A stretch of DNA of 64,000 nucleotides, taken from contig JAZOVZ010000078.1 of assembly GCA_045658965.1 (NCBI GenBank), forward strand, positions 1,252 to 65,251. Direction: 5' to 3'. Of this stretch, positions 16,196 through 61,353 are shown piece by piece. The stretch is from Eubacteriales bacterium. GTDB lineage: Bacteria > Bacillota > Clostridia > Oscillospirales > CAG-272. The position numbers and the translations under genes are program-made. Position 1 is the stretch's first letter. Each line of letters starts with the position of its first letter. Below the pieces are notes generated by a model. It was not told the DNA's origin. It saw only the letters and a program-made list of their open reading frames with translations, and searched no databases.

Positions 16196-16290
16196 TATAT
16201 GTTCCCTTCTTTCAGTGGCCTATTCTATATTATAGCACGGTGGAGAAGAATTTGCAAGCGGTTGGGGGCAAGAAAAAACAAAAGGCAGCG

Positions 16291-16634
16291 GTGCTCGCTT
16301 GCTGTTTGCGCGAAGCGCAACATCGTTTACGCCGCAGGCGTAACATCATTGGGCGATAGCCCACATCATTTGCGACTTGTCGCAACATCGTTTATTTGTG
16401 CCGCGGTCAACAAGAAAAGCACCAAGCCGACTGGCGGCACTAGGGTACTCGCCTGCTGTTTGCGCGAAGCGCAACATCGTTGATGCGAAGCATCACATCA
16501 TTGCGAAGCACATCATTTGCACGAAGTGCAACCTCGTTCATTTGTGTCCGCCTGCGGTGGAATGATGTTGACCTTCGGTCAAATGATATTGCGTGCAAGC
16601 ACGCAAATGATGTTGTGTCCTGCGGACACAAATG
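16291..16634. repeat. hairpin-plus-ACATCRTT word array (two sub-arrays, the second with an inverted half)
   Basis: ACATC(G/A)TT occurs at 16320, 16343, 16363, 16385, 16474, 16495 and 16510, with a degenerate copy at 16531. AATGAT(G/A)T occurs at 16561, 16582 and 16606. Each word is separated by a different 5-6 bp stem hairpin such as TGCGCgaaGCGCA and TACGCCgcaGGCGTA. Confidence 0.85.
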
Positions 16635-16668
16635 AAAAAATCCTGAAAGCAGAGCTTTCAGGATTTTT
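16635..16668 (-). terminator. intrinsic terminator downstream of tRNA-Gln (also usable from the + strand)
   Basis: AAAAAATCCTGAAAGCagagGCTTTCAGGATTTTTT: a perfect stem flanked by A and T runs. Confidence 0.8.
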
Positions 16669-16744
16669 TGGCTGCGGCACTAGGATTCGAACCTAGGGAA
16701 TGACGGAGTCAGAGTCCGTTGCCTTACCGCTTGGCGATGCCGCA
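16669..16744 (-). tRNA. tRNA-Gln (anticodon CTG)
   Basis: Reverse complement is TGCGGCATCGCCAAGCGGTAAGGCAACGGACTCTGACTCCGTCATTCCCTAGGTTCGAATCCTAGTGCCGCAGCCA. It has a 7-bp acceptor stem, anticodon loop CUCUGAC, a GTTCGAATC T-loop and an encoded CCA. Confidence 0.9.
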
Positions 16745-19973: not shown

Positions 19974-20792
19974 TTACCTCATTTCATCATCCGCCGTATA
20001 AAAGCAATCAAATTGCCATCTGATCGGGTTTTCGTAAATGTATTTGGCGATTTGTTCATAATCCTCGCGGTTGCGGATAATGTGGTCGTGGAATCCACGT
20101 TGCCATATGGTTGAATCTCCAAATCGTTTGTGAATCTCTTTCGAGGCATTCATTTTGATATATCCAACCATTTTCGAAATCACTGATCGACCACGTAGGG
20201 GCGATTCACGAATCGCCCGCGCATCCATGGTATCCGTAATCACAATAATCAAATGAATATGATTGGGCATAATTACATAACTATCCACAAAAGCAGAATA
20301 ATTATCGGGAATATGGCTTATTACCCCGGCAATAATTTTCCCGTATTCGGTTAATTGAATGGGGGATTCTTGTGTTGTCCCAACAACATGAAGGGCGACA
20401 TTCTCCGCGGGCGATTCGTGAATCGCCCCTACGGCGTTGTGGGGATTGGTTTCGGCGGGCGATTCGTGAATCGCCCCTACGGTGTTGCGAGGATTGGTTT
20501 CCGCGGGCGATTCGTGAATCGCCCCTACGGCGTTGCGGGGATTGGTTTCGGCGGGCGATTCGTGAATCGCCCCTACGGTGTTGTGGGGATTGGTTTCGGC
20601 GGGCGATTCGTGAATCGCCCCTACGGTGTTGCGGGGATTGGTTTCCGCGGGCGATTCGTGAATCGCCCCTACAACACGCGATAGGGTGCATTTTTTTCGA
20701 TGCGTACATATGGTAATGAAATACGCTCCCGGGCTGCTATAATCGAAATCCTTAAGACGTAATCTTTTACGGATCGGCAATTTGTTCTCCAT
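19974..20792 (-). CDS. REP-associated tyrosine transposase-like (IS200/Y1 HUH family) protein with an internal 6x16-aa tandem insertion
   Basis: N-terminal FDYSSPGAYFITICT, HUH motif MPNHIHLII and C-terminal YIYENP tyrosine motif. VGAIHESPAETNP(R/H)N(T/A) is repeated six times in frame. Confidence 0.8.
   Translation of the reverse strand: MENKLPIRKRLRLKDFDYSSPGAYFITICTHRKKCTLSRVVGAIHESPAETNPRNTVGAIHESPAETNPHNTVGAIHESPAETNPRNAVGAIHESPAETNPRNTVGAIHESPAETNPHNAVGAIHESPAENVALHVVGTTQESPIQLTEYGKIIAGVISHIPDNYSAFVDSYVIMPNHIHLIIVITDTMDARAIRESPLRGRSVISKMVGYIKMNASKEIHKRFGDSTIWQRGFHDHIIRNREDYEQIAKYIYENPIRWQFDCFYTADDEMR
20195..20220. repeat. REP-like palindrome inside the RAYT-like gene
   Basis: GTAGGGGCGATTCacGAATCGCCCGC, with 8-bp arms GGCGATTC/GAATCGCC. 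It encodes AIRESPL on the minus strand. Confidence 0.8.
20404..20671. repeat. 48-bp tandem repeat, 6 copies, each containing a REP-like palindrome GGGCGATTCgtGAATCGCCCCTAC
   Basis: Palindromes start at about 20409, 20457, 20505, 20553, 20601 and 20649, an exact 48-nt period. They lie in frame within the CDS. Confidence 0.95.
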
Positions 20793-33955: not shown

Positions 33956-34103
33956 CCCCACTCTTGAGAGTTTTTGCGTCGCTTTTTTCAAAAAGCGACC
34001 GCCCATCCAAGGGCGCGCAGCCCTTGGTCGCGCCCGCAGGCGCGAAAGATCCAAAACGCCGTTTTTGGTTCTTTTTGCGGCAATTTTGCCAAAAAGAACG
34101 GAA
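33956..34103 (+). repeat. multi-hairpin intergenic element, copy L
   Basis: A chain of five different hairpins (GCGTCGCTTTTTtcAAAAAGCGAC, CCAAGGGCgcgcaGCCCTTGG, TCGCGCCcgcaGGCGCGA, CCAAAACGccGTTTTTGG, TTCTTTTTGcggcaattttgcCAAAAAGAA). An inverted copy lies at 34311-34468. Confidence 0.85.
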
Positions 34104-34310: not shown

Positions 34311-34468
34311 AAGCCTTTCCGTTCTTTCTTTGAGCAAGTAGGCACAAAGAAAGAACCAAAGAAATGCCGTTTAAGAGATTTCGCGCCTGCGGGCGCGACT
34401 TGGGGCGCCGCCCCAAGTCCCCGGTCGCTTTTTGAAAAAAGCGACGCAAAAACTTTCGTGAGTGGGGT
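34311..34468 (-). repeat. multi-hairpin intergenic element, copy R (inverted)
   Basis: Its reverse complement aligns with 33956-34103 along its length. Shared blocks include TTTTTGCGTCGCTTTTTTCAAAAAGCGACCG and TCGCGCCCGCAGGCGCGAAA. Confidence 0.85.
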
Positions 34469-47481: not shown

Positions 47482-47712
47482 GCGTACCTGCTCTATGGCA
47501 GGTACGCAACGAAATTTGCCCTTTCGGGCAAGTGAAATCGCTTCGCGGTGAATTATTTGCTTCGCAAATGTGAAATGTCCGCTTACGCGGACGTGGGCAA
47601 TTTTCATTTCACATCGAGCAGAGCGAGATATTTCACAATGTGCGTTAGCACATTATTTCACGTTTTGCAAAAGCAAAACATTTCACTATATGCTTTTGTG
47701 CCCGCAAAAGCA
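47482..47712. repeat. hairpin-plus-GTGAAAT/ATTTCAC word array with two-fold symmetry
   Basis: GTGAAAT at 47532 and 47570, with degenerate GTGAATT at 47548. ATTTCAC at 47606, 47630, 47655 and 47690. Intervening hairpins include AATGTGCgttaGCACATT and GTTTTGCaaaaGCAAAAC. Confidence 0.85.
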
Positions 47713-47728
47713 ATGCTTGTCAAGAAAT

Positions 47729-47764
47729 AAGGACGAGGAATTTTTGCAATTCTTCGTCCTTTTC
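47729..47764. terminator. hairpin terminator between the two arrays
   Basis: AAGGACGAgGAAT...ATTCtTCGTCCTT with flanking T-rich tracts on both strands. Confidence 0.65.
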
Positions 47765-47821: not shown

Positions 47822-48009
47822 GCTTTTGAGGGTGATATTTTTGCTTTGCAAAAGTGATATTCTTATCCTTGTAGGGACAGGCGTCCTCGACTGTCCGCAC
47901 GGCAAAGTGATATTGCCTACGGCAGTGATATTTTTGCTTTGCAAAAGTGATATTTGCGCGATGCGCAAGTGATATTGCGGCTTTGCCGCAGTTTGACGCT
48001 GCGCGTCAA
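47822..48009. repeat. unidirectional hairpin-plus-GTGATAT array (6 words) with an embedded GTAGGG REP
   Basis: GTGATAT at 47832, 47854, 47907, 47925, 47947 and 47969. Hairpins include TTTTGCtttGCAAAA (twice), TTGCGCgatGCGCAA and TGCGGCtttGCCGCA. The REP GTAGGGACAGGCGTCCTCGACTGTCC lies at about 47871-47896. The last hairpin covers the stop codon of the trpB-like gene. Confidence 0.85.
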
Positions 48010-61189: not shown

Positions 61190-61353
61190 TTGAAAATTTG
61201 CTTGTGCAAATTTTTCCCTTCATATTCCGCAGAAAGCGGAATATTTCACTCGCGCCTTGCGCGAATTTCACTTTTGCGAAAGCAAAAATTTCACATTTCG
61301 CCTATGGCGAAATATTTCATTGCAATGCGGTCAACTTCAGTTGGCTGCATTGC
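61190..61353. repeat. unidirectional hairpin-plus-ATTTCAC array (4 words)
   Basis: ATTTCAC at 61243, 61265 and 61288, and ATTTCAT at 61313. Hairpins are ATTCCGCagaaaGCGGAAT, TCGCGCcttGCGCGA, TTTTGCgaaaGCAAAA and ATTTCGCCtatGGCGAAAT. A terminal longer hairpin abuts the stop codon at 61356. Confidence 0.85.

Follow-up and report, generated by a model that had tools for sequence, protein, structure and literature searches.

The question raised by the stretch of Eubacteriales bacterium DNA analysed here (contig JAZOVZ010000078.1; 64,000 nucleotides, referred to as the window) is to what kind of element the array of small hairpins at 16291-16634 belongs, punctuated by the word ACATCRTT and placed next to a tRNA-Gln gene, and how such an element acts. 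The array is a new, uncatalogued variant of the hairpin-word arrays of the Gut-1 type and not a new kind of thing; from its sequence it is classed as a putative uncurated sister family of Gut-1, within a superfamily of 'hairpin + word' arrays of gut and rumen Clostridia. It consists of two adjacent copies of an element of ~215 nt, one truncated (16307-16431) and one complete (16459-16672). Regarding its action, the reading preferred, at somewhat less than an even chance, is that of a tagged mini-palindrome repeat acting single-stranded, similar to the repetitive extragenic palindromes (REP) and bacterial interspersed mosaic elements (BIME).

Eleven words were located in the array, eight forward and three inverted, in agreement with a preliminary description, correct in all its sequence statements, that had counted at least 11 word/hairpin units with the last three inverted. 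The exact word was identified on the + strand at 16320, 16343, 16363, 16385, 16474, 16495 and 16510 and on the - strand at 16561 and 16606, and words with one mismatch at 16531 (ACCTCGTT) and 16582 (ATATCATT, - strand). The 64 kb contain 15 exact matches, 9 of them inside the 344-nt array region; the expectation for the whole window is 4.6 and none of 100 shuffles reached 15. Outside the array there are 6 matches versus ~4.6 expected, so the rest of the window shows no enrichment. A hairpin is present in every unit, as had been described: all 11 word-adjacent segments are perfect end-anchored hairpins, with p values by shuffling between 0.0004 and 0.06 segment by segment (summed log10 p = -30.4), and their score was equalled by 0.6% of length-matched random segments of the window. 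The stems have 4-7 bp, plus a single 2-bp case, GCGAAGC, a sequence that forms an exceptionally stable mini-hairpin as DNA and just two base pairs as RNA. The loops are GAA (five units), GCA, GATA and CTTG in the forward units and TTC, CAAG and TGC in the inverted part, and the unit lengths are 23, 20, 22, 21, 15, 21, 21 and 24 nt.

Several common explanations for such a pattern were discarded. A coding repeat was rejected on the unit lengths, which are not multiples of 3, and a simple tandem repeat (variable number tandem repeat) because Tandem Repeats Finder returned no rows for the array at a minimum score of 30. A series of intrinsic terminators was rejected as well: the only GC-rich hairpin followed by a U tract is 16635-16669, and the units end in ACATCRTT or AAYGATGT and lack a U tract, thus they are not terminators (two units pass only a lax terminator scan). 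The array is therefore unlike both terminators and simple tandem repeats, as was first proposed. A likeness of the words to the 16S rRNA 3' end or to the Shine-Dalgarno sequence was dropped, the resemblance by eye being too weak.

The array lies between two co-directional genes and fills the gap that separates the terminator of one from the promoter of the other, the order on the - strand being tRNA-Gln, terminator, array, promoter (16257-16229) and a MATE transporter gene. This promoter (16229-16257, - strand; TTGCAA-17-TGcTATAAT) faces outward and is the counterpart of the 'P_X' flanking, in most loci, the end of the element that carries its first hairpin, H1. As it lies between the array and the gene, the array was rejected as a 5' leader of the MATE gene. 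Copy 1 is preceded by a leader, GGTGCTCGCTTGCTGTT (16290-16306, +), which is locus-specific, is outside the inter-genome homology block and, read on the - strand, contains a small hairpin and then TTTTGTTTTTT. The copy itself has the long arm only (16307-16392, +), formed by H1 TGCGCgaaGCGCA, TACGCCgcaGGCGTA, GGGCgataGCCC and TGCGActtgTCGCA with ACATCRTT after each. These modules match those of L044 in identity and order (L-numbers designate loci fetched from the scan of species genomes described below), and the copy is 93% identical over 70 nt to the second array of L081. Its centre is degenerate (TATTTGTGCCGCGG...; 16393-16431, +) and the short arm is missing; a weak terminator-like hairpin is located at 16420-16436 on the - strand. 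Next come 13 nt left over from the tRNA-Gln 3' end (CCTAGTGCCGC-CA; 16432-16444, -), 3 nt shorter than the true end. The near copy of the tRNA-Gln end already noted between the sub-arrays is hereby located, with GCGGCACTAGG at both 16434-16444 and 16674-16684.

Copy 2 starts with the leader GGTACTCGCCTGCTGTT (16444-16460, +), a duplicate of 16290-16306; the leader that the two sub-arrays were said to share extends over 43 nt with 91% identity (16290-16332 and 16444-16486). Its long arm (16459-16538, +) comprises H1 TGCGCgaaGCGCA, GATGCgaaGCATC, GCgaaGC and TGCACgaaGTGCA, with the words ACATCGTT, ACATCATT, ACATCATT and the terminal variant ACCTCGTT. The centre (16539-16560, +) contains CATTTGTGTCCGC, the 5' strand of a long-range helix, and then a small hairpin of the CCGCctgcGG type. 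The inverted short arm (16561-16613, +) reads AATGATGT-TGACCttcGGTCA-AATGATAT-TGCGTGcaagCACGCA-AATGATGT, and is followed by the terminal hairpin TGTGTCCtgcGGACACA plus AAATG (16614-16636, +), where GCGGACACAAATGAA supplies the 3' strand for the long-range helix as an alternative to the local hairpin. The brackets previously reported around the inverted half are TTCATTTGTGTCCGC (16537-16551) and GCGGACACAAATGAA (16622-16636), 15 nt long and 100% complementary. The segment between these inverted repeats was rejected as an invertible one, since the flipped state was identified in none of 28 elements. The complete copy ends in a bidirectional intrinsic terminator (16635-16669, both strands; A6, 10-bp GC stem, T6), abutting the CCA end of tRNA-Gln(CTG) (16669-16744, -), which has its own promoter and its 3' end towards the element. 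It follows from the shared locus-specific leader and the tRNA-Gln remnant that the pair of copies arose by local duplication or insertion at the tRNA end, the event that gave rise to copy 2.

Relatives of the array, designated class A for their ACATCRTT word, are dispersed among other genomes. One genome per species was scanned for runs of three words at a spacing of 9-20 nt. This pattern yielded at least 119 loci, and among the matches listed about 80 of 146 word chains had hairpin spacers. The hosts of these chains, among the same matches, are metagenome-assembled genomes (MAGs) of gut and rumen Clostridia, including Oscillospiraceae, Acutalibacteraceae, Ruminococcus, Anaerotruncus and Faecousia. 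The matches from other phyla and from giant viruses are plain tandem repeats, whose spacers are identical and do not form hairpins. A phage element was rejected, true hairpin arrays being only 2 of ~120 matches on viral contigs. By blastn, the block from H1 to the terminator end of copy 2 (16459-16672) is 95% identical to L011 and 80-93% identical to L007, L118, L081, L086 and L053, and the DNA outside this block cannot be aligned to those loci. The element is thus a discrete unit, conserved where its flanks are not. The terminator is inside the block of homology with L011, L081 and L060 although the neighbouring genes differ, which makes it the element's own. A covariance model derived from 25 short-arm segments (R1) matched 97 times, always within Clostridia loci or the array, and never in 18 control loci or on the Gut-1 arrays of the window. 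On the array this model scored 99 bits at 16531-16634 and matched the long arms on the opposite strand (34.8 bits, - strand, on that of copy 1). Two loci came from one MAG in five cases, and two elements lie on one contig in L053, L060, L081, L094 and the window, so that at least 2-3 copies are present per MAG or contig.

The architecture of the class-A element is shared among these loci. It begins with H1, (T)TTGCGCGAAGCGCA, followed by two to five more units of hairpin and ACATCRTT, frequently ending in ACCTCGTT. The centre, (CA)TTTGTG(T)CC..., is followed by two or three inverted units (AAYGATGT plus hairpin), by the terminal hairpin TGTG(T)CC-loop-GG(A)CACAAA and by a terminator of A tract, stem and T tract. 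The arms are convergent in 33 of the 37 elements with two arms, the spacing of units ranges from 15 to 29 nt and is not strictly phased, and the type of terminator goes with the subtype of the element regardless of the upstream gene. That the stems differ from unit to unit, as was first noticed, is correct for the array; however, the hairpins are not arbitrary, but recognisable modules that recur elsewhere: TACRCC, GGGC, GATGC, GCGAAGC, TGCRAC-CTTG, TGACC, TGCGTG and TCTCGC..GCTCGA. These modules keep a roughly fixed order across genomes, each being present or absent, and show compensatory differences between genomes, such as TGCGACTTGTCGCA, TGCAACTTGTTGCA and TGCAGCTTGCTGCA.

Pairing was examined in an alignment of 25 homologous elements (short-arm segments), where RNAalifold predicts two short-arm hairpins and the long-range helix from the centre to the 3' end. 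The stems covary: standard pairs occupy 95.4% of the cells versus 77.9% after shuffling, and the covariation score is 0.411 versus 0.099, values as high being reached in 0 of 500 shuffles in both cases. When the 3' partners were slid by 1-3 columns, 28-48% of the cells were paired. Helices 2 and 3 of the short arm contain 6 and 15 or more double changes. The stems are thus kept by compensatory change in these elements and the word is nearly invariant, in support of the selection on structure plus word that the preliminary description had proposed. Variants of the centre are matched by variants of the local terminal hairpin and of the 3' strand (TGTCC to TGCC, CATTTG to TTG), consequently the local hairpin and the long-range pairing both remain available. 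G.U pairs were identified in 1 of 500 cells; as they are nearly absent, and as DNA-level processes can keep perfect palindromes, covariation alone is no proof of RNA.

The array also has a polarity, and this is tied to the word. Among 114 distinct hairpins, the loops on the ACATCRTT strand are GAA in 23, GCA in 8, GTAA in 5, GCAA in 4 and TTC in none, and the polarity of the loops relative to the word is identical in both arms. Hairpin mismatches on the same strand are G.T in 7 cases versus A.C in 3, and the module TCGAGCGAAGCGAGA presents tandem G.A pairs solely on the word-forward strand. Since loops, mismatches and G.A pairs follow the word, the favoured strand flips between the arms. Both strands fold with the same energy (-91.7 and -91.6 kcal/mol), therefore the RNA fold does not pick a strand.

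The affiliation to Gut-1 was examined with Rfam. In the search of the array only tRNA was matched at gathering thresholds, and no family reached threshold on the array itself; the best Gut-1 match there had 14.1 bits (E 8.4, 16539-16618; gathering threshold 50). Other matches below threshold, with E up to 10, were Clostridiales-1 (18.9 bits) and CRISPR-DR20 (17.6 bits). The view that the array belongs to no recognised named family is upheld by this search and has to be amended in one respect, as Gut-1 (RF01706) is a named family with the same grammar. It was identified in the window itself at 47507-47581 (+), 47601-47688 (-) and 61238-61322 (-), with the word GUGAAAU and scores, in descending order, of 62.6, 55.5 and 41.1 bits. 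Considering that the Gut-1 model scores so low on the array, class A would be a separate, uncurated sister family. The Gut-1 arrays of the window extend over 47507-47700 and 61193-61322 (word GTGAAAT), the first with two inverted arms and a terminator at ~47725-47760. Both are located between co-directional genes of the - strand (GH28, PLP enzyme, acyltransferases), a position like that of class A. A third array, at 47822-47990, has the word (A)GTGATATT, which is also present in the published Gut-1 seed alignment, and the hairpins TTTGCtttGCAAA, GCCtacGGC, TGCGCgatGCGCA and GCGGCtttGCCGC. The 64-kb window contains four sites of hairpin-word arrays.

Other word classes with the same grammar were identified in the same genomes, among them GTGAAAT, GTGATATT, AATGAAGT, GATGATATAC and ATGAAGCA, all classes containing TGA or TCA. 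Nine of the loci (L037, L118, L026, L029, L039, L055, L060, L066 and L043) present arrays with GATGATATAC, CATTTCAAG, AGTGAAGT/ACTTCATT, ATGAAGCA and ATTTCAT, again with the TGA/TCA core in every word.

The placement of the class-A elements is also recurrent. Of 58 elements, 21 have a tRNA whose 3' end is turned towards them at 31-63 nt, and these tRNAs represent at least 10 species; none of the 58 has a tRNA with its 5' end facing it. Beyond the terminator, in canonical orientation, the neighbour is a convergent tRNA in 11 cases, a convergent open reading frame in 10 and a co-directional one in 2. At the other end, most loci present, 33-76 nt from H1, a strong extended -10 promoter directed outward. 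In the short variants H1 and the -35 box of this promoter overlap or are only 4-15 nt apart. No promoter of sigma-70 type directed towards the array was identified upstream of H1 in 23 loci. The array is absent upstream of the 26 MATE homologues inspected, with identities of up to 83%, and was accordingly rejected as a conserved syntenic feature of the MATE locus.

Among the neighbouring genes, one coding for a PF05635 protein (23S rRNA intervening-sequence / Avd-like four-helix bundle) was identified in 19 class-A loci, about a third: L015, L019, L021, L022, L034, L035, L046, L060, L062, L064, L071, L074, L075, L086, L102, L104, L117, L118 and L028. This gene is mostly driven by the outward promoter beside H1 and is often the first of a two-gene operon, the second gene being variable. 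The loci containing it adjoin at least 7 different tRNA species. No such gene was identified in the window by tblastn, and no integrases or partition genes were identified among the neighbours scanned. In L053, L060, L081 and L094, successive class-A elements separate small accessory genes (lipoproteins, small membrane and immunity-like proteins), and in L060 the unit of gene plus element is duplicated; the layout of these loci looks cassette-like.

According to the reading preferred here, that of a REP/BIME-like repeat, the element would act single-stranded, as DNA on either strand and also as read-through RNA. Tag and hairpin would together be the site at which recognition or crossover takes place, the enzyme being one of the Y1/HUH type that is specific for structure and sequence and acts on single strands; a relative of the REP-associated tyrosine transposases (RAYT) is an example. 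That enzyme, or simple word-mediated recombination, could add, delete and invert units and move the element. Once placed, the terminator and the hairpins may punctuate the upstream gene at its 3' end and insulate the downstream promoter. A DNA-type repeat is preferred to a gene-like RNA because loop and G.A polarity follow the word in both arms, because G.U is near absent, because GCGAAGC is a stable mini-hairpin as DNA but not as RNA, because no forward promoter was found before H1, where an outward one sits instead, and because the element is always 3' of a gene, multi-copy, variable by locus and missing from the MATE orthologues. The presence or absence of units in a conserved order, as expected from loss and gain at identical words, and the existence of further word classes with the same grammar in the same genomes argue in the same direction. 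In addition, the lineage has Y1/HUH machinery, as the window contains a RAYT-like gene (19974-20792) and GTAGGG-tagged REPs with differing stems.

A number of observations weigh against this reading. No RAYT was identified in the class-A loci by tblastn and no enzyme is linked to ACATCRTT, the RAYT of the window having its own GTAG-tagged REPs. The copies within one genome (copy 1 versus copy 2) are more diverged than copies of the same type between genomes (window versus L011), a pattern closer to conserved paralogous genes than to a repeat active in recent times. The loops are often GNRA (GTAA, GCAA), which fits RNA, and the element's terminator, with symmetric A and T tracts, suits a transcript antisense to the flanking genes. 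The nested pairing of long-arm and short-arm words gives G-C 16, A-T 29, G-T 30 and A-C 2, and an A-C count this low was obtained in 19 of 5000 shuffles (p about 0.004); with few independent events, this suggests inter-arm pairing in one folded strand, the one antisense to the flanking genes. Finally, Gut-1 was judged likely RNA by its discoverers (PMC2864571), who gave no function, and is classed as an sRNA (small RNA) by the Rfam curators. The main rival is a trans-acting structured sRNA extending from H1 to the terminator. Its stable hairpins would present the ACAUCRUU words, single-stranded, as a multivalent sponge or scaffold of the CsrB/RsmZ type to an RNA-binding protein or to another RNA, and the inverted arm would mask or organise the words by pairing. 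Strong covariation, GNRA and GNA loops on the + strand of the long arm, a 3'-end terminator with its T tract on that strand, word-word pairing on it with G-T far above A-C, the discoverers' opinion on Gut-1, and the inter-genome identity of 86-95% between unrelated flanks, with intra-genome copies resembling diverged paralogues as in families of sRNA genes, all favour such an RNA. It is nevertheless regarded as rather unlikely: no sigma-70-type promoter was found upstream of H1, where the short variants leave 4-15 nt to the outward -35 box; one arm would be antisense in any single transcript and yet keeps polar features of its own on the other strand, namely tandem G.A and loops of the G...A kind; hardly any G.U pairs occur; and beyond the array the window has 6 matches of the word for ~4.6 expected, which is no enrichment.

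The remaining explanations are all held to be improbable. The words could be protein-binding sites in double-stranded DNA (iteron, centromere-like or integrase arm-type) serving control of the adjacent promoter, a transcription roadblock or recombination at tRNA 3' ends. Their length of 8 bp in direct and inverted orientation, the 20-24 bp of most units (about two helical turns), the position directly upstream of a strong promoter whose -35 box H1 overlaps in short variants, and the adjacent tRNA 3' ends with a tRNA 3' fragment present would fit; the hairpin in every spacer, the strand-biased stable loops and the covarying stems would be left unexplained, the spacing of 15 to 29 nt is not strictly phased and the neighbours are not integrases or partition genes. 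About as improbable is the proposal that the arrays (class A, Gut-1 and the further word classes) are cis sites of an undescribed single-strand recombination system of gut Clostridia. A Y1/HUH-type or attC-style enzyme would cut and rejoin tag and mini-hairpin, modules of terminator, array and promoter would punctuate and shuffle small accessory-gene cassettes beside tRNAs, and the PF05635 protein would be a dedicated partner. Slightly less credit still is given to a functionless by-product, generated by local duplication at the words, with palindromes kept by template-switch ('quasipalindrome') correction and tolerated in gaps between terminator and promoter. A duplication in the window that takes in 13 nt of the tRNA end and the leader, strictly Watson-Crick pairing and the differing number of units are what such a process would leave, but it does not account for a whole element conserved at 86-95% where the flanks do not align, for the fixed order of modules, for G...A loop types kept across orthologues or for a fixed architecture including long-range helix and terminator. 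The REP-like repeat acting single-stranded is thus kept as the favoured, if tentative, reading, and the questions it raises have become testable: RNA versus REP-like DNA repeat, the reader of the word, transcript ends and promoter insulation, and the proximity of PF05635.

The RAYT-like gene of the window (19974-20792, -) codes for a Y1/HUH protein of 272 aa that matches PF01797 with 32.9 bits and NCBIfam NF047646 ('REP-associated tyrosine transposase') with 73.4 bits, the cut-off being 80. It contains six tandem 48-nt repeats, each with a GTAG-tagged REP (GTAGGGGCGATTCACGAATCGCCC) and translated as VGAIHESPAETNPRNT, and one further, inverted copy of the REP in its conserved part. GTAG-tagged REPs were identified in the window at 20199-20668, 34195, 34282, 44669 and 47874, with sequences unlike the class-A units. 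The last four consist of GTAGGG and a hairpin whose stem differs at each site; 34195 and 34282 form an inverted, REPIN-like pair, and 47874 is inside the GTGATATT array. The pair is flanked by two clusters of longer GC-rich hairpins, at 34007-34068 and 34381-34445 (CCAAGGGCgcgcaGCCCTTGG, TCGCGCCcgcaGGCGCGA, GACTTGGGGCgccGCCCCAAGTC), which share the stem TCGCGCC/GGCGCGA with opposite loop orientation. In L207, a GTAGGG REP directly follows the class-A array.

Compared with REP/BIME and REPIN elements, class A is alike in that its palindromic units are extragenic, are flanked by a short conserved tag and are clustered in both orientations 3' of genes. It is likewise dispersed, lineage-specific and polar, tag and asymmetric features moving together on either strand. 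The hairpin of the RAYT-associated REP is preceded, at 0-2 nt on its 5' side, by the tetranucleotide GTAG or GTGG (PMC6006769), and this tag was not identified in the class-A units, where it is ACATCRTT instead. The hairpins of the array are moreover much smaller (7-17 nt) and each is unlike the others, and the entire architecture is conserved between genomes. TIGR arrays are formed by units with palindromic stems, two spacers of 8-12 nt and box C/D motifs in the loop, adjacent to a Tas gene with a Nop domain (PMC12045711). Class A resembles them in its tandem units, in stems that are 'variable but consistently palindromic' and in its short conserved motifs; nevertheless a TIGR-Tas stem-loop array was rejected, as loops of 3-4 nt have no space for spacers, and no Tas-type gene was identified among the neighbours scanned. 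A CRISPR array, with identical repeats of 23-50 nt and unique spacers of about equal size, was rejected too, the conserved part being 8 nt long and the variable parts self-complementary and of 7-17 nt; the best match of a CRISPR direct repeat on the array had 17.6 bits versus a threshold of 42. The sponge sRNAs CsrB and RsmZ have many hairpins with different stems, a repeated motif, several paralogues and an end terminator. Class A has the repeated short motif, the many stems, the paralogues and the terminator as well, but its motif is between the hairpins and not in the loops, it has an inverted arm and no promoter was found.

The closest system is Gut-1, in Rfam since 2010 as a three-hairpin 'sRNA' and seen only in gut metagenomes. 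The literature searched on Gut-1, on RAYT in Clostridia and on PF05635 gave no functional information, and no description of the larger architecture and context was found in it or in Rfam. Both families present short hairpins with differing, covarying stems between conserved words of 7-9 nt and both have inverted arms (47507-47581, +, and 47601-47688, - for the Gut-1 array of the window). They occur in the same genomes of gut Clostridia and follow the terminator that ends a gene or tRNA. The Gut-1 seed alignment shows the same succession of tRNA 3' end or stop codon, annotated terminator, array and inverted arm, and also contains the word GUGAUAUU (PMC2864571). AAUGAUGU and AGUGAUAU agree at 6 of 8 positions, and UGA is the core of both. 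The grammar is alike and the word is different, AAYGAUGU/ACAUCRUU in class A and GUGAAAU or GUGAUAUU in Gut-1. The extent modelled differs as well, as Rfam has only three hairpins and the class-A element, of ~215 nt, has 8-10 in addition to its long-range helix and terminator, and the terminator-side arm of the main class-A subtype has the opposite word orientation. This comparison suggests that Gut-1 represents a single word class within a far larger design, comprising tagged mini-hairpin arrays with inverted arms and a terminator of their own. In many gut and rumen Clostridia this design sits after tRNA and other genes and before the next promoter, and annotators gain with it a pattern for a common, so far unannotated feature of gut Firmicutes genomes.

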